A stretch of DNA of 39,219 nucleotides, taken from positions 1 through 39,219 of the forward strand of contig CAKSOR010000001.1 in NCBI GenBank assembly GCA_934477985.1, in the 5' to 3' direction. This DNA is from an uncultured Eubacteriales bacterium. GTDB lineage: Bacteria > Bacillota > Clostridia > Oscillospirales > CAG-272. Position 1 is the first letter of the stretch; each line of letters starts with the position of its first letter. The notes beneath the pieces are model-generated. The model saw nothing but the letters and a program-made list of their open reading frames with translations, ran no database searches and was not told where the DNA came from. Shown here piece after piece: positions 2,927 through 31,553 of this stretch. Both the position numbers and the translations under genes were made by a program.

Positions 2927-2955
2927 TTGACTTTCCGGGCGTTTCATGGTAGAAT
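2927..2955 (+). promoter_or_regulatory. Sigma70-type promoter of the RSH cassette: TTGACT (2927-2932), 17 nt, extended TGG-TAGAAT (2947-2955)
   Basis: Read directly. It is followed by GGGAGG (2975-2980) 5 nt before ATG 2986. Confidence 0.6.
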
Positions 2956-2985
2956 ATCATCATTCCAACGTGCCGGGAGGAAAAC

Positions 2986-3600
2986 ATGACAGAGGATCTG
3001 CTTCTGATGAACGGACTGTCGACTCAGATACTGGAGCGGCTGTCGTATGAATCCCACCTCGGGAAGTCGCTCAAGTACAACCTTCACCACTTTGATAAGG
3101 AAGCGCTGCTGAACGAGCTGTTCGATATGACAAAATGGCTGCGCAAACAGAGCGTTTTAGATGAGATCGCACTGGACTACCGCATCAAGAGTATCGGTTC
3201 TATCACTCTTAAATATGAACGCTACTACCCTGACAGGCAGGTGCGCAAGACCTTCAACGATATTCTCGGGTTCAGGGCGTTCTGCGACGACTACCGGGAG
3301 CTTATCTGTCAGGACAGCGACGTATTCCGCGTAGTAGACATGTCGGACGGAAAGTCATCCGATGACGGCTACCGTGGTGTTCACCTGTACTATCAGTTGG
3401 ATAACCGCCACTACCCGATAGAGGTGCAGTTCAACACGCTCTATGACCGGCAGATGAACAACTGGCTTCACGATTATCTCTACAAAAAGGGTTATCCGGA
3501 CGAGGTCGGCAGAGAACTGCGTGAACGCTACGAAGAAGGCAGAATCCACAGTAAAGATGATTTTGAGGAGGAGTTAAACGATGTGCTACGTGCTCGCTAA
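2986..3600 (+). CDS. Stand-alone RelA/SpoT-homologue (RSH) synthetase-domain protein; small alarmone synthetase / toxSAS-like
   Basis: 204 aa. The motif order matches the RelA_SpoT synthetase domain of RelQ/RelP-type proteins: YRIKSIGSITLKYERY, DILGFRAFC (G-loop Asp), DDGYRGVHLYY, IEVQFNTLYDRQMNNWLHDYLYKK (the ExQxRT...H...YK block with Arg replaced by Asn). There is no hydrolase or regulatory domain. It has its own promoter and a strong RBS, and is visibly more AT-rich than its neighbours. Confidence 0.8.
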   Translation: MTEDLLLMNGLSTQILERLSYESHLGKSLKYNLHHFDKEALLNELFDMTKWLRKQSVLDEIALDYRIKSIGSITLKYERYYPDRQVRKTFNDILGFRAFCDDYRELICQDSDVFRVVDMSDGKSSDDGYRGVHLYYQLDNRHYPIEVQFNTLYDRQMNNWLHDYLYKKGYPDEVGRELRERYEEGRIHSKDDFEEELNDVLRAR

Positions 3601-3805
3601 AGACAGGAACAAACACGGCTGTGTCGCGCTCAAGACCAGAATCGGCGAAGAGCTTTCCGAGCTGGTAGTCGAGCTTGACGCGCTCGCGCCGCACAAGGGC
3701 ATCGAGATCGTCACGATCAGCCGCCCCACCGCCTACGGCGAATACGCGCCCTACTCCTTCGTCCAGACCGCCGATGAGCTTAAAGAAGCCGTAAAACGGA
3801 TGTAA
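3581..3805 (+). CDS. 74-aa hypothetical protein translationally coupled to the RSH gene (candidate cognate antitoxin)
   Basis: The ATG at 3581 overlaps the last 20 nt of the RSH CDS. GAGGAGGAG (3565-3573) lies 7 nt upstream, inside the RSH coding sequence. No family recognised. A strong terminator follows immediately. Confidence 0.6.
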   Translation: MCYVLAKDRNKHGCVALKTRIGEELSELVVELDALAPHKGIEIVTISRPTAYGEYAPYSFVQTADELKEAVKRM

Positions 3806-3812
3806 AACAACC

Positions 3813-3849
3813 AAAAGGGGCTGTCGCTTTTGCGACTGCCCCCTTTTTT
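3813..3849. terminator. Bidirectional rho-independent terminator between convergent genes
   Basis: GGGGCTGTCGC / GCGACTGCCCC stem (11 bp, one mismatch) with a TTTT loop. It is flanked by an A-run (3813-3816) and a T-run (3844-3849). The T-run overlaps the stop codon of the minus-strand SBP gene. Confidence 0.7.
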
Positions 3850-5305
3850 ACTTCATCTCACGATAAACCTTGTTTATCTCCTCAATCTTCGCTATCGCCG
3901 AGGACTCATTCTCCGCGTATACAGACGCGAAACTGTGACCTTCTGTCTGCGCGAGCTTCCACCCTATGGAATTGATCGCGGACGGTATCACGGCATTGTC
4001 GTAGAAATACCCGATGTCAAAAACGCGACCGTCACGAATGAGGTCGAGCATCTGCACCGACTCGTCATCGCGCGAATACTTCGTCTGCAAAGCAACCTCG
4101 TAATACTGCGGCATAACCGTCTTGCTTCCCTCCGCGCAAAGCGCTTCGAGAACGATCGAGACACGGTCAGGGTCGGCGACACTTATCGGCACGCCGATAA
4201 GATTACAGCCCGCGTCGACATTTGTGTAATACTTTTCATCGCTCTCGTCGAACTTCGGCCATGGAATTATTCCGAAATCCGACTTCATATCACGCATCAA
4301 GTCAAGCGTCTTGATATTGCCGTCAAGGAACATCGCCCGGTCTTCGGCAAATGTCCGCGCCTTAACATCAGCATTGCCGTCCGCAAGGATTATGTGTCCC
4401 GCGTCGCTGTCGGTGAACGCGAAATATTTATCAAAGATGTCGACTGTCCGCTCGGTGTTCAGCGTAAGCGTGAGCTCGTCGTTCCCATCCTTTTCACAGA
4501 TACGCTGACCGCCGGTATAAAGCACCTGAATTGGTCCGATCCACCAGCTTGTAAGGTAACCGACACGGTCGTTCTCGAAATCAATCTTACCATCGCCATT
4601 GAGGTTGCGCGTGCCCTGCTTTGCGAGCTTTCCGAATTCGTCGAATGTCCATTTTCCTGATTTTACCATGTCATACGGTTCGTCGAGCTTCAGCTCCCTG
4701 AAGATATGCTTGTTGTAGAACATACCATTAGCCGCGCCGAGATTGAGGTGGCAGATGTCTCCGGAGCAGGTAAACAGCTTGTGCGCTACTGAGAGACTTT
4801 CACGCGAGTCCTGATTCCACCAGGGCTTATCGAGGTCAATGTATTTCAATTCATTGTTCCATTCAAGGAGCAGGCTGTTCTGCGCGTAGCTTGAGATCTT
4901 GCGCGCGTGGCAGAGCAGCATGTCGTATGAATCATCTCCGGCGAGAATCACGCTTGTCGCGTCGGTCGCGTAGACATTCGCCGAGCGGACTATCCGGAAC
5001 TCGATTCCGAAGCGCTCAGCAACCTTCTGATTGCGCTCGTAGACAGCGTCATTCATGATGTCACCGGTCGTCGATTCGACATACATGTCCGCGATGAAGC
5101 CGTCATCGTCGCGCACGAACATCGTGAATGCCGCGCCTTCATAGTCGATCTCGGGCAGATCGTCGGATATTTCCGTTTCGACCGCCTCGGTCGTTGTGTC
5201 GCCGGATGGAGACGCGGTGGTTTCGTCGGGAGCGGCTTCGCCGCCGCAGGAAAATGCCGAGAGGAGGATTGCAAAGAGTAATGCCAGGGAGATGAATTTT
5301 TTCAT
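3848..5305 (-). CDS. Extracellular solute-binding lipoprotein (ABC-transporter family-1 sugar/oligosaccharide SBP)
   Basis: 485 aa. Lipoprotein signal MKKFISLALLFAILLSAFSCGG. The acidic Thr/Glu-rich linker and overall size and composition are typical of Clostridial oligosaccharide SBPs. No permease or ATPase genes are adjacent. Confidence 0.8.
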   Translation of the reverse strand: MKKFISLALLFAILLSAFSCGGEAAPDETTASPSGDTTTEAVETEISDDLPEIDYEGAAFTMFVRDDDGFIADMYVESTTGDIMNDAVYERNQKVAERFGIEFRIVRSANVYATDATSVILAGDDSYDMLLCHARKISSYAQNSLLLEWNNELKYIDLDKPWWNQDSRESLSVAHKLFTCSGDICHLNLGAANGMFYNKHIFRELKLDEPYDMVKSGKWTFDEFGKLAKQGTRNLNGDGKIDFENDRVGYLTSWWIGPIQVLYTGGQRICEKDGNDELTLTLNTERTVDIFDKYFAFTDSDAGHIILADGNADVKARTFAEDRAMFLDGNIKTLDLMRDMKSDFGIIPWPKFDESDEKYYTNVDAGCNLIGVPISVADPDRVSIVLEALCAEGSKTVMPQYYEVALQTKYSRDDESVQMLDLIRDGRVFDIGYFYDNAVIPSAINSIGWKLAQTEGHSFASVYAENESSAIAKIEEINKVYREMK

Positions 5306-6631: not shown

Positions 6632-9145
6632 TTATTTATTGAACTTCCAGTCCTTGTCGGGCAGGATGTCGGGAGTGCGGAGGAACTCGAGCTTTCTGTA
6701 GTCACCGAAATTCTCCTTCGCCTGGAACGCCACCGAAACCGTGCCGCTGACGTGCTTTGCGACGTAGCAGCCGCGCTTTTCGTCGTACTCTGTCTCGTAC
6801 TTCGGACCTCTCCACATGTCATACTCGCCGCCGATCCAGGCAGTTCCGCCCTTCTCGGGGAAGATTGTCAGCTCGGCGTCGTCGAGTCCCGAGAGTATGA
6901 AGCGCTCGTCGACGTTGATCAGAACGTCGCCCGGAGTGTAGCGGCGCATCGTGAGCTTCGCGCGATTTTTCTGCTTGACAAAGACGCGGCAGTCGGTGTG
7001 AATCCATCTCGAGAGCGGATAAGTTCCGACGCTGTCGTCGATCGTGAACTCCGTGCCGTCGAACGCCGGAGCGCCGTCGGGCGTCGTGAAGCTCATCCGA
7101 ACCGAGGCGTCCTTCGCGAAGACGTTGTAAATCACCGAGTTCCGGCACTTTCCGAGCTGAATTATCGGCAGATTGTCGTCGACGTTGAAGCACTCGAAGG
7201 TCATCGGATAGCCGAAGAGCTGCATCGCGCATCTCGTGAGCATCGCGCAGGGGAAATACCTCGACGGTTGGCGCTTGTTCGGGAGAGCCGGACGCGGGTT
7301 CGTGTCATGCGGGAACGAGCCGCGTATCCAGACGAGTCCGAGAGACTTGTTGAAGGTCATGTAAGCGCGCTTCTCGCCGTCCTTCGAGACGGTAGCGGTC
7401 ACATCCGTAGAGCCGTCGGAGAGTTCGCAGACTCCGCCGTTCGAGAGATAGCCGGGGTGAATGAGCGTCTTCGAGTAGGCGTTGACCTCGGCTTTATCGA
7501 GCGTCAGCGTCGTCCCGAAGCCGAGCTCGCCGTCGAGCTCGCCGCCAAGCGTGATTCCGCAAGCCCTTCTGAGCTTTTCGGAGGCGTTCCGGAGACTTCC
7601 GGCGAGGATGACCTTTCCGCCCTTCTCCATGACCTCAAAGAGCGAATTCTCAAGCTCGCTCCCGGCTTCGGGCACGGCGGTGAAGATGATGTTTCCGGTG
7701 AGCTTTGACTTGTCAGCCTTTACGAAATTGCCGTCCGATATGACGCTGTTGACCGGGAAGCCCATGTCGACCGCGCTCTCGACGAACCAGTCGTCCATGA
7801 ATATCTCCGAGAGCCGACCCTCGGCGAGTCCGACCTTGCAGTAGCTGTCGAACGGATAGACCCAGGTGACGAGTCCGGATTCATCGGGGTAGTCGTTGTA
7901 AGCCGTCAGAATGTGCGGCGTGACCTCGTTCGGGCAGCGCTCGGGAAGGCGTCCGAAGGAGTCGTCGGCACTTAAGAATCCGAGTCCGAAGGGCTTCGTG
8001 ACAGCTAAGTTTTCGTCGAGACGCGCTATCGAGAGCGGCAGGTAGATGTCGTGCGGGCTGCGGTCATAGCGGTCGAACCAGGGCGAGTTCGTCCACCAAG
8101 GGTCGTGGATGTAGTAGCGGAGCTGGAAGCCCTTCTCGGGCAGCTCGGCGATATGCGACATGAATCCGGCGAGCTCAAGTCCGAAGCGGTAGTTGAGCGG
8201 CGCCCACGGAGAGTTCGGCGGGGCTACGAGGTTCTTCACCGCGTAGATGTCGTTTATCGGGCAGCCGTGCGCCGAGATGTCCATTCCGGTCGAGAGGTTC
8301 GAGCCGCGGGTCTCAACTCTCGTGTCGCCTATAGCCGCGCAGAAGTACTTCCAGAACTCGGCAATGCTGTCGCGAACCCGTTTTGCGCCCTCAAAGTCGA
8401 ATTTCGTACCGTCGAACAATTCGCCCGTCCAGTTCCAGGACGCAAGCGAGAAACCAAAGCCGTTAGAGAGCCAGATGTAGTCGAACCCAAGGTCGCGCTT
8501 CATCGCCATGAACTGTCTGCCGAGGAACTCGCCGATATGCGTGCCCTCCGGGATTCCGTCAGGATAAGCGGCGTAATGATGATCGTCGGCGTGCAGCCTT
8601 GACGCGCAGTGCACCCAGTGCTTGCAGCCCATGATGTCGCCCTTAGAGATCTCGGGATGGCGGTTGTACTTGAACTCCGACCAGGCGAACTCGGGTCCGG
8701 GGTCGAAGGTCTCGCCGACCTCGATGTCAAAGCCGGTAACTTCCTTTCCGACCCGCTTCATGACCGAGATTATCTCCTTCAGGTCGCCGTAGGTCATCTC
8801 GGGCGGATTCTCGATATAGTGCACTGGGAAGGCGTGCAGCGACAGGCGGTCGTCACGGTCGTGCGGATCCGTGTCACGATCCCAGTTGCCAATTCCTATA
8901 TATTTGCACCACTCGAAGGAATCCTTTGGATTCCCGGAGTAATCGAGTATCTCCGAGCCGTCGCTCGTCCAGAAGAGGAGCGAGCATCCGGTCGCGTATT
9001 TTAAAAGCGGCTTCCACTGCTCGAAGAGGGTGTGCGCGACCCTCTCGAATCCGGCGGTGGTCTTGTCAAGTCCGAAGGGCTTCAGGCTTATCTCAAGACA
9101 GACCCTTCCGGCGTTCGTCGTAGAACGGTATTCGTAGTTAAACAT
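6632..9145 (-). CDS. Large uncharacterised cytoplasmic protein (837 aa), probably a carbohydrate-active enzyme
   Basis: Track ORF trimmed to Met10 (ATG 9145), preceded by AAGGAGAAAAAA. The composition is Trp/Tyr/Asp-rich. A mid-region IIFTAVPEAGSELENSLFEVMEKGGKVILAGSL resembles the GATase1-like trimerisation domain of GH42/GH112-type enzymes. I could not assign a family. Confidence 0.75.
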   Translation of the reverse strand: MFNYEYRSTTNAGRVCLEISLKPFGLDKTTAGFERVAHTLFEQWKPLLKYATGCSLLFWTSDGSEILDYSGNPKDSFEWCKYIGIGNWDRDTDPHDRDDRLSLHAFPVHYIENPPEMTYGDLKEIISVMKRVGKEVTGFDIEVGETFDPGPEFAWSEFKYNRHPEISKGDIMGCKHWVHCASRLHADDHHYAAYPDGIPEGTHIGEFLGRQFMAMKRDLGFDYIWLSNGFGFSLASWNWTGELFDGTKFDFEGAKRVRDSIAEFWKYFCAAIGDTRVETRGSNLSTGMDISAHGCPINDIYAVKNLVAPPNSPWAPLNYRFGLELAGFMSHIAELPEKGFQLRYYIHDPWWTNSPWFDRYDRSPHDIYLPLSIARLDENLAVTKPFGLGFLSADDSFGRLPERCPNEVTPHILTAYNDYPDESGLVTWVYPFDSYCKVGLAEGRLSEIFMDDWFVESAVDMGFPVNSVISDGNFVKADKSKLTGNIIFTAVPEAGSELENSLFEVMEKGGKVILAGSLRNASEKLRRACGITLGGELDGELGFGTTLTLDKAEVNAYSKTLIHPGYLSNGGVCELSDGSTDVTATVSKDGEKRAYMTFNKSLGLVWIRGSFPHDTNPRPALPNKRQPSRYFPCAMLTRCAMQLFGYPMTFECFNVDDNLPIIQLGKCRNSVIYNVFAKDASVRMSFTTPDGAPAFDGTEFTIDDSVGTYPLSRWIHTDCRVFVKQKNRAKLTMRRYTPGDVLINVDERFILSGLDDAELTIFPEKGGTAWIGGEYDMWRGPKYETEYDEKRGCYVAKHVSGTVSVAFQAKENFGDYRKLEFLRTPDILPDKDWKFNK

Positions 9146-9164
9146 TTTTTTCTCCTTAAATCTC

Positions 9165-10601
9165 TTAGTCAAGCGGCTTTTCGAGCTTTATATCCATCAT
9201 CCGCGCGAAGGTCCCGATCTCTTCGGTGTGATCGCCGATTCCGAGCGCTAAGTGGTGAGTCGGTCCCGCCGAGCACCAGCGCTCGACAAACTCGTTCGCG
9301 GGGACTTTGAAGCGGCATTTCGTGTTGGTGTTTCCGGTCGCCGGAATCGCGCCGGGTCTGGACTCGCCGGTCGCCTCTATGAGCTTTATCTTTCCGTCCC
9401 CGCCGACCGAGCAGGACAGCAGCGAGATCGGTCCGGTCTTTAATTTGAACTCTACCGAGACGCCCGCGCCCGGCTTTCCGTGGAACTTCTTCAGCTTTCT
9501 GAGCACCGGGCGCTCGTTGCTGATGTTGATGTTGTGCGGTCCGTCGTGACCGATGAGCACGATGTCGTCGACTACGTCGAAGGGATGCAGCTCGGCGAAC
9601 GAGCCTCCGCCGCCTACGCGGTTCATTATCAGCATCGCCGCGGCGGTCTTGAGGTCAGCCTCACCGGCGAGCGGGATGTCGCGGCTGGTTAAAAGCGAGT
9701 TTCCGATGATCAGGTTCGACGCTATGCGCTCATACTCGTTGCCGTGCTCGCCCTTGTAGAAGTAGGCGAGGGCGGTCAGTCCGTTCTTCTCGACGAGTGT
9801 GTCAAGTCCGATCGAGCAGCGCGCCGCGAGCTCAAGGTCGGAGTCGTGCACGAAATCGGTCAGCGGGTCGTTCGAGGGCTCGCGGATGTCGAATATCGAC
9901 CTGATAAGCCCGATCCGCTCCTTCACCTCAGCGTCTGTCGCGGCGTGCACATACTCGATGAGCTCGCACATCTCGAGCATCTTGACATGCGCCCCGAAAG
10001 TCCCTGAAAACGCGGTCGGGTCGGTGTTCATGTCGTACATTCCGTCGTAGGTGTGACCGAGATACCCGAACTTAGCGTACCTGAACGCGGCTACGGCGCA
10101 GATCGCGCGCTCGAAGACTCCTATGCGCGCCGCGATCTTCTCGCGCTCACCGGCGGTCTCGACGATGAAGAATGGCTTCGGAGCGCCAAGACGCTCATAG
10201 ACGCCGCCGAACTCGGGCATCGAGCAGATGTCGTCGTTGACGAGCTGCATATACGTCGTCGTCTTCGTGTAGTCAAGCCGGTCGAGCGGCTGGAGAGCGA
10301 CGAGTATCTGCGGAATTTTCAGGTACTTCGCGAACGGGAAGACGACCTGCGAGGTTATGTAGGTCGACATGACGACAAAGAGCGCGTCGAGGTCGGAAGC
10401 GAGCGCCTTCTTGAGGCAGACATACGAGCTGTCGATGTCGTCCGCGAAGCCGAGGTCGATGGTCTCGACCCTGTCCGAGAAGTATCCGGCGAGCCCGGCC
10501 TGCTTCTTCTTCAGCTCATCGAGCAGTCCGTCGAACTGATCCCAGTAGATGAAGTGTCCCATGCCGATAATCCCTATGCGGGGCTTTCTTGTGTGTATCA
10601 T
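9165..10601 (-). CDS. L-arabinose isomerase / L-fucose isomerase superfamily protein
   Basis: Track ORF trimmed to Met21 (ATG 10601), with AAGGAG 8 nt upstream. The N-terminus PRIGIIGMGHFIYWDQFDGL and the C-terminus GPTHHLALGIGDHTEEIGTFARMMDI match the AraA-like pattern (THH...G). Confidence 0.75.
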   Translation of the reverse strand: MIHTRKPRIGIIGMGHFIYWDQFDGLLDELKKKQAGLAGYFSDRVETIDLGFADDIDSSYVCLKKALASDLDALFVVMSTYITSQVVFPFAKYLKIPQILVALQPLDRLDYTKTTTYMQLVNDDICSMPEFGGVYERLGAPKPFFIVETAGEREKIAARIGVFERAICAVAAFRYAKFGYLGHTYDGMYDMNTDPTAFSGTFGAHVKMLEMCELIEYVHAATDAEVKERIGLIRSIFDIREPSNDPLTDFVHDSDLELAARCSIGLDTLVEKNGLTALAYFYKGEHGNEYERIASNLIIGNSLLTSRDIPLAGEADLKTAAAMLIMNRVGGGGSFAELHPFDVVDDIVLIGHDGPHNINISNERPVLRKLKKFHGKPGAGVSVEFKLKTGPISLLSCSVGGDGKIKLIEATGESRPGAIPATGNTNTKCRFKVPANEFVERWCSAGPTHHLALGIGDHTEEIGTFARMMDIKLEKPLD

Positions 10602-12542: not shown

Positions 12543-12571
12543 TTGCTTTTTCACTACCGTTGTTGTATAAT
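12543..12571 (+). promoter_or_regulatory. Promoter of the lipoprotein/LemA operon: TTGCTT (12543-12548), 17 nt, extended TG-TATAAT (12564-12571)
   Basis: Read directly. A weak hairpin (ACTAAC/GTTAGT, 12527-12543) plus a T-run just upstream may terminate the AraC genes. Confidence 0.55.
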
Positions 12572-12602
12572 ATTGTCAAACCTACCCTTAGGAGGGATGA
12601 AA

Positions 12603-13679
12603 ATGAAAAAACTGTTCTGTCTCATGCTCGCCTTCTGCGTCTGCCTTTCGTTTGCCGGATGCGGCGACGAGCCCGCCGGCGAGGACTGGCGCACATGGGG
12701 AACAATCACCACCGAAGGCGACGTCACCATCGACGATACGACCGCTCACGTGCTGATCTCGGTCTACAACTCGAGCACCGTCTTCTACCACGACATCTCC
12801 GAGCAGATCGAGTTCGCGACGCTTGAGTACCCGAAGACGCTCGACGCCTCGAAATTCAGCTCGATCGACCTCGACGACCTCAACTTCGACGGCAACACCG
12901 ACGTACAGCTGACCTTCTCGGACGATTCGGGCGACACGATATTGGTCTGGCTCTGGTACGAGAACGAGGGCTATCTCTACGACGACGAGCTCTCCTACTT
13001 CCCCGGCGAGATGAACAATCAGAACAACGACCCCGACGAACAGGACGTCGCCCAAGCGGCGATGTCCTATTTTGAACAGATGGGCGTCGAGCTGAACGCC
13101 GAGCCCGACAACGGCAAGTACGAGCTCCCGAACGGCGCCGTGCTGATGACCACCGACTACAAGACCTTCTACCGCACCTATGCCGACTGGGAGGTCAAGA
13201 TAACGTCGGACAAGGTATCCGGCGACGAGCGGAAGATTAAATTCACGGCGATCTGCTATATCCCCGACGAGTCGATTCCGGACTACGACGGCGACATATT
13301 AATCAGCTGCTCGAAGAACATCTTCGACGCTTACACCGGCTACTGCCTGACCGCCGAGCGCACCGACGGCAACACCTCTAAGGGCGACAACACCTACTCC
13401 TACGCGCTGGAGTTCGACGGCACAGAGTTCATCATCGAATACAGCTACTCGACGCGCTGGGCGTACTACGAGGACGGCTACCGCGCGACACTCTACCTCG
13501 ACTATGACGTGAGCGTTCCGGTCGGCTACGACGGACTCGTATTCGCGGCTCATACGGCGGCGGAGAATAAGGCTGAGTTCGACCGCCGCGACGCGCTCGG
13601 CGACGGATTCGACAATATCGCGCTCTTGCAGATGGAGGACTACGACCCGTCGGAGTCGCTCTTCTTCGGGATAAAGTGA
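12603..13679 (+). CDS. Hypothetical lipoprotein (358 aa)
   Basis: The second ATG is chosen because AGGAGGG ends 7 nt upstream of it. Lipobox LSFAGCGDE. An acidic extracytoplasmic domain carries an FG-GAP-like DLNFDGNTD stretch. No family assigned. Confidence 0.75.
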   Translation: MKKLFCLMLAFCVCLSFAGCGDEPAGEDWRTWGTITTEGDVTIDDTTAHVLISVYNSSTVFYHDISEQIEFATLEYPKTLDASKFSSIDLDDLNFDGNTDVQLTFSDDSGDTILVWLWYENEGYLYDDELSYFPGEMNNQNNDPDEQDVAQAAMSYFEQMGVELNAEPDNGKYELPNGAVLMTTDYKTFYRTYADWEVKITSDKVSGDERKIKFTAICYIPDESIPDYDGDILISCSKNIFDAYTGYCLTAERTDGNTSKGDNTYSYALEFDGTEFIIEYSYSTRWAYYEDGYRATLYLDYDVSVPVGYDGLVFAAHTAAENKAEFDRRDALGDGFDNIALLQMEDYDPSESLFFGIK

Positions 13680-13687
13680 GGTTCTGA

Positions 13688-14506
13688 ATGAAAAAAAGAT
13701 TAATCGCGCTCTCCTTCGCGCTTCTGCTGCTGACGTCCTGCGGAGAGAGCAAATCCGACCGCGTCACCGACCCGGCTGAGATCGACGGCTCGTGGTCTAC
13801 GACGATGGGCAATGTCCTGACGCTCGACATCGACTCGGGCACTTACACCTACCTCACCTTCTACGGTCGCACCGGACAGGGCGAATACGGGATGGTAAGC
13901 GGCTCAAAGCTGATGCTCGACTTCAACGGCATGATGTATGACTTCGAGCTGCGCGACGACGGCGTTCTGCGCCCCTTTATAAACGGCTCGACCGACCGCG
14001 AGGAGATCGGCGCGTGGACCTTCGTCCGCTCTGACGTCGGCGCGGGCGGCGAGTTCGACAAATCGGTGCTCGACGGCGCGTGGAGCAGCCCCGACGGCAC
14101 GGAGCTCACGATCGACACCTATAACGGCGGATATTCCGCGAAGCTGCCGGGCGGCGGAGTCTCCGAGGGCACTCTGAACGACGATTTTGACGGCAGGGGA
14201 TATTACCTCTACAACTCGGGCGAGCGCGGTTATTTCGTCATGGGAGACGCGAACGACAGCTTCAAGCTCTGTTTCGGTGAAGCAGACCCCGGCGCGTTCA
14301 GCGAAAGCGGCGAGCTCGAGCAGGTCTTCTACCGCGAGGGCACGGATATTCCGGACGCCGATAAATACGAGTACATTTACGACGAGGATTCGTCCACGGC
14401 GTGGATGTACGACGGCGTCGACACCTTCTACGTCGGCATGTACGGATACGAAATGACTGACGGCGTTCTGACGCACGACGGCGCGCCGGTGAAGAATCTA
14501 TGGTGA
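13688..14506 (+). CDS. Hypothetical lipoprotein (272 aa)
   Basis: Signal and lipobox MKKRLIALSFALLLLTSCGES. Gly/Asp/Tyr-rich. Starts 8 nt after the preceding gene. Confidence 0.75.
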   Translation: MKKRLIALSFALLLLTSCGESKSDRVTDPAEIDGSWSTTMGNVLTLDIDSGTYTYLTFYGRTGQGEYGMVSGSKLMLDFNGMMYDFELRDDGVLRPFINGSTDREEIGAWTFVRSDVGAGGEFDKSVLDGAWSSPDGTELTIDTYNGGYSAKLPGGGVSEGTLNDDFDGRGYYLYNSGERGYFVMGDANDSFKLCFGEADPGAFSESGELEQVFYREGTDIPDADKYEYIYDEDSSTAWMYDGVDTFYVGMYGYEMTDGVLTHDGAPVKNLW

Positions 14507-15156
14507 GCGATAAGGAGCGCCTGCGGGCGCGCAAGCTCACGAAAATCTCAAAGGCGGTGATGAAGGTCTTCGTCGGCGTCGCGACCGCGGCGGTGCTTCT
14601 GACGATTTTCGGATTCCTGAACCTCCTTTCCTGCCTGGCGGTCGTCGTCATAGCGGCGATTCCGACCGCGATTCTCGATAAGACGGCGCGGAAGGCGCGA
14701 AAAGATTTCTTCGCCGGGTTCGATAGCGACATCACCCGCGCGGCGCTGAAGAACTCTGAGCTCTCAGACGCGGTCTTCGAGCCCCGAAAGAAGCTCGATG
14801 AGGCGACTGTACGCGAGAGCGGATTGTTCGGGAATTTCGACTACGCCGACGGAAGCGGTTACCTCTCGGGGACGCTTGACGGCGTGCGATTCCGCTTCTC
14901 GGACATTGCCGTCGGACACAGGGAGAGACACCCGGTTCCGGAAGGCAGAGACCCCGAGTGGAAGTTCAACGACCACGTCGGCTGTCTGCTCGTCGTCGAC
15001 GTCGATGAGCGGCGGTATGAATTCATAAAGAAGACGCTGTTCGCGATAGAACTGAAGGAAGACGTCCCGCTCGCGGCGCAGAAAAAGCGCATAGAGAGCG
15101 AGATCGCCGGGCTCGCGGAGCACATAAGAAAATTATCGAACGGAGGAAAATCATGA
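14500..15156 (+). CDS. DUF3137-like membrane protein (218 aa)
   Basis: Overlaps the upstream stop by 7 nt. It has a basic N-terminus, two TM helices, then GLFGNFDYADGSGYLSGTLDGVRFRFSDIAV, which resembles the DUF3137 core. The start codon is not certain. Confidence 0.65.
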   Translation: MVSDKERLRARKLTKISKAVMKVFVGVATAAVLLTIFGFLNLLSCLAVVVIAAIPTAILDKTARKARKDFFAGFDSDITRAALKNSELSDAVFEPRKKLDEATVRESGLFGNFDYADGSGYLSGTLDGVRFRFSDIAVGHRERHPVPEGRDPEWKFNDHVGCLLVVDVDERRYEFIKKTLFAIELKEDVPLAAQKKRIESEIAGLAEHIRKLSNGGKS

Positions 15157-30954: not shown

Positions 30955-31353
30955 TTAATATATCCCGAGCTGCTTCACAAGCGCGTCTTGCAAGACCTTT
31001 GAGAAGTTGATATTCCGCTTCTCAGCCGCGGTGTTCAGCCACGAAGGGATAGTGCAGTTCTTTCGGACGGCGCGGCTTCCATATTTGGCGGCGCACACAT
31101 CCATATCGAGCACGATGAGGTCGGTAAAATCGCCCTTTTCGACCGCTATGTCGGTCATCCTCGAGGCGCTCGGCAGTTGGCTGCCATCCTCCAGCTCGTC
31201 GATCAGCCAGCCGCCAGCGGCTTCCTGAGCGTTCTCGATGGCTTCGCAAAGGCTGTGTCCCTCGGTCACACAACCGGGAAGATCAGGAAAAGTCACGCAG
31301 TATCCGGGATTCTCTTCTAAAGGCGAAAATACCGCCGGGTATATGAGTTTCAT
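30955..31353 (-). CDS. hicB: HicB family antitoxin
   Basis: 132 aa. YPAVFSPLEENPGYCVTFPDLPGCVTEGHSLCEAIENAQEAAGGWL is the HicB/UPF0150 fold signature. There is a C-terminal RHH-like tail. TAATG overlap with hicA. Confidence 0.9.
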   Translation of the reverse strand: MKLIYPAVFSPLEENPGYCVTFPDLPGCVTEGHSLCEAIENAQEAAGGWLIDELEDGSQLPSASRMTDIAVEKGDFTDLIVLDMDVCAAKYGSRAVRKNCTIPSWLNTAAEKRNINFSKVLQDALVKQLGIY

Positions 31354-31553
31354 TATTTATTTCCCTCCTTTGGGTCGATGCCCGCTTGCTTCATTATTGA
31401 GCGCGCGGTCTTAATATCGAGGTCTCCGCCATGCTTTGGCACAGTCACCTTGCCCGGCTTCGACGGATGTATGTACTGGTTATGCGAGCCACGGCAGCTC
31501 TTGAATATCCATCCATTGTCGAGAAGCAGCCGCTCTATCTCTTTGAACTTCAT
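31353..31553 (-). CDS. hicA: HicA family mRNA-interferase toxin
   Basis: 66 aa. MKFKEIERLLLDNGWIFKSCRGSHNQYIHPSKPGKVTVPKHGGDLDIKTARSIMKQAGI matches the HicA consensus (GSH...H...VTVP.H...L..GT...I.KQAG). Confidence 0.9.
   Translation of the reverse strand: MKFKEIERLLLDNGWIFKSCRGSHNQYIHPSKPGKVTVPKHGGDLDIKTARSIMKQAGIDPKEGNK

Follow-up and report, generated by a model that had tools for sequence, protein, structure and literature searches.

Background

The FaRel2/ATfaRel2 system of Coprobacillus sp. D7 (PDB 8PU1-8PU4) is a two-gene, toxin-first operon with overlapping reading frames, in which an enzyme of the RelA/SpoT homologue (RSH) fold acts as a small alarmone synthetase that is toxic (toxSAS). 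Its toxicity, its neutralisation, the toxin-antitoxin complex and the tRNA-directed mechanism are supported by published work (PMC7229694; bioRxiv 10.1101/2021.04.30.441581; PMC11782079). FaRel2 of strain D7 inhibits translation specifically and pyrophosphorylates the tRNA CCA end (bioRxiv 10.1101/2021.04.30.441581); it prefers tRNA-Gly and tRNA-Thr and reads acceptor-stem base pairs 1, 2, 4 and 5 (bioRxiv 10.1101/2024.07.05.602228). That the toxin gene comes first is also seen from the published promoter fragment of the D7 operon, which ends in codons for MYILDKIGL, the N-terminus of FaRel2 (PMC10565793). Here we describe a related two-gene cassette at positions 2,927 to 3,849 of a 39,219-nucleotide (nt) stretch, referred to as the window, of contig CAKSOR010000001.1 (assembly GCA_934477985.1) from an uncultured Eubacteriales bacterium of the CAG-272 lineage of the Oscillospirales.

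Other described systems share parts of this architecture. The bicistronic toxSAS modules PhRel2/ATphRel2 and PhRel/ATphRel (gp29/gp30) likewise inhibit translation via tRNA CCA pyrophosphorylation (bioRxiv 10.1101/2021.04.30.441581), but they represent other RSH subfamilies, their antitoxins are non-homologous and do not cross-neutralise FaRel2 (Table 1 in PMC7229694), and their tRNA specificity is different (bioRxiv 10.1101/2024.07.05.602228). CapRelSJ46 (PDB 7ZTB), a phage defence protein in which a toxSAS is fused to a pseudo-Zn-finger domain (pZFD), combines a tRNA-pyrophosphorylating toxSYNTH domain with a YXXY motif in the pseudo-Zn-finger that blocks the ATP donor site; it is, however, a single polypeptide with a conformational switch in cis, whereas the window pair consists of separate open reading frames (ORFs) and is predicted to form a stable complex in trans. 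FaRel and Tas1 also use the RSH synthetase fold as a toxin, but they make (pp)pApp and deplete ATP, and their antitoxins, Tis1-type domains or a small alarmone hydrolase (SAH), act at the acceptor site; FaRel, unlike the window pair, belongs to a three-gene operon. RelQ and RelP (SAS1/SAS2) are single-domain RelA/SpoT synthetases of about 200 amino acids (aa) with a similar ATP-donor-site architecture. They differ from the window toxin in sequence (17-25% identity), form tetramers via C-terminal helices, and have neither an ordered N-terminal tRNA-binding extension nor an antitoxin partner.

The defining features of RelQ/RelP, CapRel and FaRel/Tas1 are lacking in the window pair, which displays all testable features of the FaRel2/ATfaRel2 family except a strict R29, a residue that itself varies within the family. 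A first-pass annotation, made from the sequence alone, had recognised a toxSAS toxin-antitoxin pair at this position and had seen hints of a divergent or undescribed subfamily. The assignment as a toxSAS pair was correct, as FaRel2 and ATfaRel2, to which the two proteins are orthologous, have been validated by experiment. The subfamily, in contrast, is not an undescribed one: it has already been validated genetically, biochemically and structurally, and the window pair is another member of it.

Identification of the toxin and the antitoxin

The first gene of the cassette, faRel2 (2986-3600, forward strand), encodes a 204-aa protein of the toxSYNTH RelA/SpoT fold, predicted to be a tRNA pyrophosphokinase. 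The motifs DILGFRAFC, GYRGVHLYY and IEVQFNT...WLHDYLYKK are all present, and both ORFs of the cassette are as first described. A marginal RelA_SpoT match (PF04607; 31 bits, compared to a cut-off of 27) is the sole domain detected by Pfam. A phmmer search against the PDB matched residues 9-201 to FaRel2 of Coprobacillus sp. D7 (8PU1/8PU3/8PU4) with E = 1.3e-65 and 54% identity (104/193 aligned residues); the second-best match was RelQ/YjbM of Bacillus subtilis (E = 1.4e-3), and there was no match to Tas1, CapRel or RelP at E <= 10. AlphaFold2 prediction with 33 homologues gave a model with a predicted local distance difference test score (pLDDT) of 91.4. The five best Foldseek hits of this model were FaRel2 chains (8pu3_C; template modelling (TM) score 0.90, root-mean-square deviation 2.0 Å), while RelQ and RelP reached TM scores of about 0.4. 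The replacement of QIRT by QFNT, from which a divergent subfamily had been suggested, is native to FaRel2, the motif being IEIQFNT in the D7 protein (8PU4) and IEVQFNT in the window toxin. Judged by sequence and predicted fold, the 204-aa protein is an orthologue of the FaRel2 toxin, and both the PDB search and Foldseek group it with FaRel2 and not with RelQ/RelP.

In the protein collection, 1640 homologues of the toxin are detectable, most of them 201-212 aa in length; those with a named source are from Clostridia or Erysipelotrichaceae. No NCBIfam model matches the toxin or the antitoxin. PADLOC reported a weak, partial match of the toxin to the candidate PDC-S33 (E = 1.3e-6), which was not accepted as evidence of a defence system.

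The second gene, aTfaRel2 (3581-3805, forward strand), overlaps faRel2 by exactly 20 nt (3581-3600) and is read in a different frame, with a stop between the two ORFs. Its 74-aa product, which the first-pass annotation had called unrecognisable, matches the Pfam family DUF6718 (PF20476) over residues 1-74 of 74 (E = 1.4e-28) and the solved ATfaRel2 chains in the PDB (8PU1/8PU2/8PU3) with E = 1.9e-16 (8pu1_A) and 49% identity. On these sequence matches the protein is ATfaRel2, the cognate antitoxin. With 49% identity to the solved chains it would adopt their compact beta1-beta2-alpha1-beta3-(3-10)-beta4-alpha2 pseudo-Zn-finger fold. Single-sequence AlphaFold2 prediction of the antitoxin gave a pLDDT of just 50, a confidence too low for a fold search; the predicted strands (residues 3-8, 13-18 and 41-47) and helices (residues 25-35 and 64-73) follow the order of the published topology. 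DUF6718 is mentioned nowhere in the text library that was searched. On plasmids of Clostridium perfringens (NZ_CP075935.1; our locus L088, 3019-3814) and Clostridioides difficile (NZ_CP037841.1; L089, 2983-3793), the toxin is listed in RefSeq as "hypothetical protein" or "RelA/SpoT family protein" and its partner as "DUF6718 family protein", names which do not reflect the link between DUF6718 and ATfaRel2.

Metagenome look-ups, two plasmids, 12 viral contigs of IMG/VR and a further 80 contigs from metagenomes yielded 111 loci with a FaRel2 relative, in which the association of the two genes was examined. An ATfaRel2 homologue is located directly downstream of the toxin gene in 110 of them, usually with an overlap of 16-29 nt, and in the one remaining locus the contig breaks off at the stop codon of the toxin gene; the 74-aa ORF is hence syntenic with its homologues in other genomes. 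In the lineage of the window itself, the pair is found in three further assemblies at the same site, between genes for a glycoside hydrolase of family 127 (GH127) and a solute-binding protein (SBP). Two of these copies (L010, L011) are identical to that of the window, and the third (L012) is a divergent allele.

Functional residues and proposed mechanism

Residue roles published for the D7 proteins were mapped by alignment onto the window pair, 121 toxin homologues and 7 aligned antitoxins. The ATP/Mg/adenine site of D7 FaRel2 comprises R64, K66, S70, K74, R77, D90, G93, R95, E145 and Q147 (PMC11782079). Its equivalents in the window toxin, R66, K68, S72, K76, R79, D92, G95, R97, E146 and Q148, are all identical, and each is kept in at least 119 of the 121 homologues. 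The G-loop residue Y128, which coordinates the acceptor adenine in the D7 enzyme and whose replacement by alanine results in a non-toxic protein (PMC11782079), corresponds to Y129 within the GYRGVH motif of the window toxin, a position occupied by tyrosine in 120/121 homologues. In the D7 antitoxin, Y51 and Y54 constitute the YXXY motif, V43 and I45 the beta3 scaffold, and R47, Y57 and F59 a secondary interface (PMC11782079); the counterparts Y52, Y55, V44, I46, R48, Y58 and F60 are all present in the window antitoxin and are invariant in the seven aligned antitoxins.

The tRNA acceptor-stem patch of D7 FaRel2 was taken from the preprint by Kurata et al. (bioRxiv 10.1101/2021.04.30.441581). 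K28 of D7 corresponds to K30 of the window toxin and is invariant, H33, R114 and Y134 are conserved as H35, R115 and Y135, and R86 is substituted by K88. R29, one of two residues whose alanine substitution reduces both toxicity and tRNA binding of the D7 enzyme, is replaced by Tyr31. It is the most variable position of the patch, with Q in 49, R in 25, K in 20, H in 12 and Y in 9 of the 121 toxins, so that activity is probably kept despite Tyr31. This variability agrees with the view that the acceptor-stem recognition region of toxSAS enzymes is evolvable (bioRxiv 10.1101/2024.07.05.602228). [quoted passage not shown]

Based on sequence and predicted structure, the cassette very probably (probability about 0.9) belongs to the FaRel2/ATfaRel2 family as a type II toxin-antitoxin module that is intact. 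Two modes of action had been offered in the first-pass annotation, (pp)pApp synthesis or tRNA 3'-CCA pyrophosphorylation; orthology supports the latter but not the former. By analogy with the D7 system, the most likely mechanism is pyrophosphorylation of the tRNA 3'-CCA end, blocked by an antitoxin that occludes the ATP site. Free FaRel2 would transfer the beta-gamma pyrophosphate of ATP to uncharged tRNA, at the 3'-OH of its terminal adenosine, which would block aminoacylation and lead to translation arrest. ATfaRel2 would bind the toxin by beta-sheet extension, and the tyrosines Y52 and Y55 of its YXXY 3-10 helix would slot between the adenine-stacking arginines R66 and R97, excluding ATP from the donor site while the tRNA site stays open. 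The complex is expected to be a 2:2 heterotetramer, stabilised by R48, Y58 and F60 of the antitoxin together with the C-terminal helices of the toxin.

Several points weigh against this assignment and its corollaries. Toxicity, neutralisation and tRNA modification are carried over from the D7 system, with which the toxin shares 54% and the antitoxin 49% identity, and the replacement of R29 by Tyr31 affects a residue of known importance in the D7 enzyme. An operator search revealed no inverted repeat upstream of the toxin gene. As to acquisition, an exact empty site was not recovered at the nucleotide level; the closest GH127 loci that lack the pair are only 75-80% identical (protein).

Genomic contexts of the family and alternative explanations

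The contexts in which relatives of the pair occur are mutually unrelated and comprise chromosomes, plasmids, predicted phages and recombinase elements. Neighbouring genes code for a UPF0236 transposase; for an RNase III, a helicase and an AAA protein; for a PqqD/AAA_21 cluster; for four serine recombinases and an MNT-like nucleotidyltransferase; for a type I restriction HsdR; or for ParA and a resolvase. ParA/ParB genes accompany the pair on the Clostridioides difficile plasmid, and the Clostridium perfringens plasmid that carries it is 130 kb in size. The pair is present on 12 predicted viral contigs of IMG/VR, and a tblastn search of INPHARED phage records gave no match. In two unrelated contexts (L013, 5550-5942; L016, 766-1158; L187, 3824-4174), the immediate neighbour of the FaRel2 pair is a small NTP_transf_2/Polbeta (MNT-like) nucleotidyltransferase gene; it may be a remnant of a HEPN/MNT-type toxin-antitoxin system or part of a recurrent toxin-antitoxin islet.

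The module might serve to stabilise the DNA element that hosts it or, with the same biochemistry, act in abortive infection, a phage cue freeing FaRel2 from ATfaRel2. We regard such a role in phage defence as conceivable but doubtful. It would fit the proximity of relatives to type I restriction HsdR, AAA_15/AAA_21 ATPases and helicases, as well as the hypervariability of the toxin-antitoxin interface between alleles of the same species (see below). However, E. coli gained no protection from the D7 pair when challenged with more than 60 coliphages (bioRxiv 10.1101/2024.07.05.602228), no defence genes are found beside the pair in the window, and carriage by predicted phages and ParA/ParB plasmids fits addiction or exclusion equally well. 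Overall, addiction, exclusion and defence would each be compatible with where the pair occurs: on predicted phages, on plasmids near partition genes, and next to genes for restriction enzymes or ATPases.

That the pair is an inactive relic, drifting with a disabled toxin, is very improbable. The substitution of tyrosine for the arginine of D7 and a chromosomal location with no adjacent mobility genes are what one might see in a relic, but both ORFs are intact, the catalytic residues are all conserved, promoter and ribosome-binding site are intact, and identical copies recur in three independent metagenome assemblies. In comparison with L012, the ratio of non-synonymous to synonymous divergence (dN/dS), calculated for the non-overlapping part of each gene, is 0.058/0.282 (0.21) for the toxin and 0.131/0.426 (0.31) for the antitoxin; such values of 0.2-0.3 suggest that the pair is under purifying selection. 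The arginine-to-tyrosine exchange itself was considered as a sign of inactivation and rejected, because the position varies freely among 121 homologues which all retain the catalytic set, in a family which retains the antitoxin throughout.

A toxSAS whose killing relies on making (pp)pApp and depleting ATP, in the manner of FaRel and Tas1, would have the same RSH synthetase fold, and the acceptor-site tyrosine is common to both modes of action. Such an activity is nevertheless highly unlikely for the window toxin, given its orthology to FaRel2, a translation-specific tRNA CCA pyrophosphorylator, and its predicted FaRel2-type N-terminal alpha1-alpha2 extension with the invariant K30 (K28 in D7) needed for tRNA binding. 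Its antitoxin is of the pZFD type that blocks the ATP donor site and is tied to tRNA-modifying toxSAS enzymes (PMC11782079), whereas (pp)pApp producers are neutralised by Tis1-type or SAH antitoxins; neither a SAH/HD-domain gene nor a Tis1-like gene flanks the pair, and the toxin has no match to Tas1 in the PDB search at E <= 10.

A housekeeping (p)ppGpp synthetase of the RelQ/RelP type, next to an unrelated or regulatory small protein of 74 aa, might be suggested by the size of the protein, by RelA_SpoT as its only Pfam domain and by the name "putative GTP pyrophosphokinase" given to homologues in some sources, but this proposal is effectively refuted by the far closer PDB and fold matches to FaRel2, by the linkage in 110/111 loci to a small partner homologous to a proven antitoxin, and by variable, mobile contexts with no conserved housekeeping synteny.

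Charge co-variation at the toxin-antitoxin interface

Between the window and the sister locus L012, the DNA background is about 96% identical, and flanking proteins share 100% (AraC-type regulator), 97.4% (GH127), 99% (WbsX-like protein) and 96.7% (846-aa protein) identity, whereas the toxins are only 92% and the antitoxins 86% identical. The differences are clustered at nt 3100-3199 in the toxin gene, corresponding to residues about 47-74, which according to the AlphaFold2 model form the end of alpha3 and the beginning of alpha4, and at nt 3600-3699 in the antitoxin gene, corresponding to residues about 20-39 in helix alpha1. Alpha3 of the toxin contacts alpha1 of the antitoxin, and alpha4 contacts beta3 and the beta3-alpha1 loop (PMC11782079). 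Hypervariable patches with compensating charge reversal were delimited at 3124-3207 and 3635-3697 of the window from the same-species alleles L012, L182, L183 and L184.

In this comparison, the window pair has K50, R53 and K54 in the toxin, and E23, E24 and E27 in the antitoxin; L012 has E50, S53, E54, D56, E57, E70 and E71 in the toxin, and K23, K29 and R30 in the antitoxin. The net charge of the patch was calculated from toxin residues 47-61, 70, 71 and 74 and from residues 19-39 of antitoxin helix alpha1 (window numbering). Toxin and antitoxin values are 0 and -3 in the window, -7 and +3 in L012, -2 and +1 in D7, and -4 to -7 and +2 to +5 in most of the family. The window pair thus differs from that of D7 in having a neutral-to-basic toxin patch and an acidic antitoxin alpha1.

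Over 62 distinct pairs, the two patch charges are anticorrelated (r = -0.76). For 17 representatives sharing less than 80% identity, a set in which kinship is only partly corrected, r is -0.82, and none of 10,000 permutations was as extreme; correlations in control regions were weaker or nil. A non-acidic patch occurs in about 10% of 121 toxins. In a blind test, the partners of three toxins with a non-acidic patch, from other sublineages, all had an acidic antitoxin alpha1 (-1, -3 and -1), as predicted, and with these pairs added r remained -0.82 (n = 20 representatives with less than 80% identity). The charge rule is not perfect, one imperfect case being L182 (P0004), where a toxin patch of -3 is combined with an antitoxin N-terminal half of the window type (-3; partial sequence).

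From these data and the contacts described in the text of PMC11782079, we infer an electrostatic specificity interface that has been switched several times. Natural charge-swapped alleles may be a new feature of these systems. That FaRel2/ATfaRel2 is present in the window as a "specificity allele" with reversed charge, relative to the sister allele at the same chromosomal site, is put forward tentatively.

Layout of the cassette and expression signals

A putative sigma-70-type promoter was identified by consensus match at 2927-2955 (forward strand), with the -35 hexamer TTGACT, a 17-nt spacer and the extended -10 element TGgTAGAAT (10/12 matches). The promoter scan of the region found 2 sites, as compared to 0.9 expected from shuffled sequences; the stretch 2927-2955 is 100% identical to the sister allele L012. 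As read from the sequence, a Shine-Dalgarno motif GGGAGG (2975-2980) is located 5 nt before the ATG of faRel2, and that of aTfaRel2, GAGGAGGAG (3565-3573), lies within the 3' end of faRel2, 7 nt before the ATG at 3581. The presence of a separate promoter-like site, a strong ribosome-binding site and a second one embedded in the toxin gene, as proposed in the first-pass annotation, was thereby confirmed. The two genes are predicted to be co-transcribed from this promoter, with the toxin first and overlapping reading frames.

A hairpin terminator flanked by an A-run and a T-run (3813-3849, both strands) would be common to the pair and to the convergent SBP gene on the reverse strand, whose stop codon (3848-3850) abuts it. 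The hairpin (3813-3847, followed by T6) has a folding energy of -20.9 kcal/mol (z = -4.7 compared to shuffled sequences); it was overlooked by a simple terminator scan because of one stem mismatch. Flanked 5' by the A-run and 3' by the T-run, it could serve both the pair and the SBP gene, and the bidirectional role ascribed to it earlier is plausible.

The D7 antitoxin binds its own upstream DNA weakly, with a Kd of 484 nM (PMC10565793). In the window, a 7-nt direct repeat, GACTTTC, occurs at 2912-2918 and 2929-2935, 17 nt apart, and its second copy overlaps the -35 hexamer of the promoter of the pair; it could be an operator half-site or due to chance. Rfam and tRNA scans of the whole window gave no matches, indicating neither an RNA antitoxin nor an adjacent tRNA integration site.

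Probable acquisition and chromosomal setting

The host chromosome of the window pair, unlike that of D7, is a high-GC chromosome of an uncultured gut member of the Clostridia. The toxin gene has the lowest GC content of all genes in the window (0.501, compared to a window mean of 0.576), and its GC content at third codon positions is 0.66, with values of about 0.77-0.83 for neighbouring genes. The claim that the RSH gene is clearly more AT-rich than the flanking sugar genes therefore applies modestly, and to the toxin gene alone; the antitoxin gene (0.582) is window-like, and the neighbouring SBP and AraC genes are themselves GC-poor (both 0.526).

The flanking genes code for an AraC-type regulator, a GH127 beta-L-arabinofuranosidase, an SBP, a WbsX-like protein, an 846-aa protein without Pfam domains and an arabinose-isomerase-like protein. 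The locus is indeed one of carbohydrate genes, as had been stated, but it is not interrupted in the sense of a split operon, because the pair sits in the gap between two convergent transcription units. A GH127 protein scan with one genome per GTDB species retrieved 71 related loci, up to 80% identical, and the pair was found in none of them; in locus L019, the GH127 gene is followed by the gene of the 846-aa protein after 148 bp. The absence of the pair from these loci supports acquisition, and the low GC content of the toxin gene is in line with the earlier suggestion of an acquired module. We infer horizontal acquisition of the pair into an arabino-oligosaccharide utilisation locus, in the intergenic gap between convergent genes, where it would now be kept under purifying selection.

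The adjacent SBP gene (3848-5305, reverse strand) also differs between the window and L012. Its body (3850-5134) is replaced by unrelated sequence in L012 (3800-5132), with 33% protein identity; the breakpoints are the common terminator (3849) and a position in the N-terminal part of the SBP, about 57 codons in (about 5135), and the sequences on both sides are about 96% identical. The pattern resembles a cassette exchange in which the substrate-binding part is swapped and the signal/lipoprotein end kept.

Among the window ORFs without a Pfam match are that of the 846-aa protein and three others (378, 272 and 218 aa), located at 6632-9172 (reverse strand) and 12543-15156 (forward strand). Proteins 70-76% identical to the 846-aa protein are encoded next to GH127 and arabinose-isomerase-like genes in several metagenome-assembled genomes of Clostridia (L018, L019, L023), and it is probably an uncharacterised glycoside hydrolase of an arabinan/arabinoxylan locus. 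A second toxin-antitoxin module is present at 30955-31553 (reverse strand), consisting of a HicA-like 66-aa ORF (31353-31553), recognised by eye alone, and an abutting gene for a HicB-like antitoxin (30955-31353; Pfam HicB_lk_antitox, E = 8e-19).

Implications

The value of these findings lies mainly in annotation: DUF6718, which Pfam lists as a "family of unknown function", comprises the ATfaRel2 antitoxins. With this link and 1640 detectable toxin homologues, well over 1000 genes of gut Clostridia can be named as parts of a tRNA-targeting toxin-antitoxin system. The FaRel2/ATfaRel2 pair is mobile: besides chromosomes, its carriers include predicted phages, plasmids and recombinase elements. 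The sole forward-looking point, and a secondary lead, is the co-variation of charge at the FaRel2/ATfaRel2 interface, whose natural charge-swapped alleles at one chromosomal site provide a ready test set for the way in which toxSAS systems acquire partner specificity. If the proposal is true, mutually insulated toxin-antitoxin variants would have arisen from diversifying selection, avoiding cross-talk or escaping phage antitoxin mimics.

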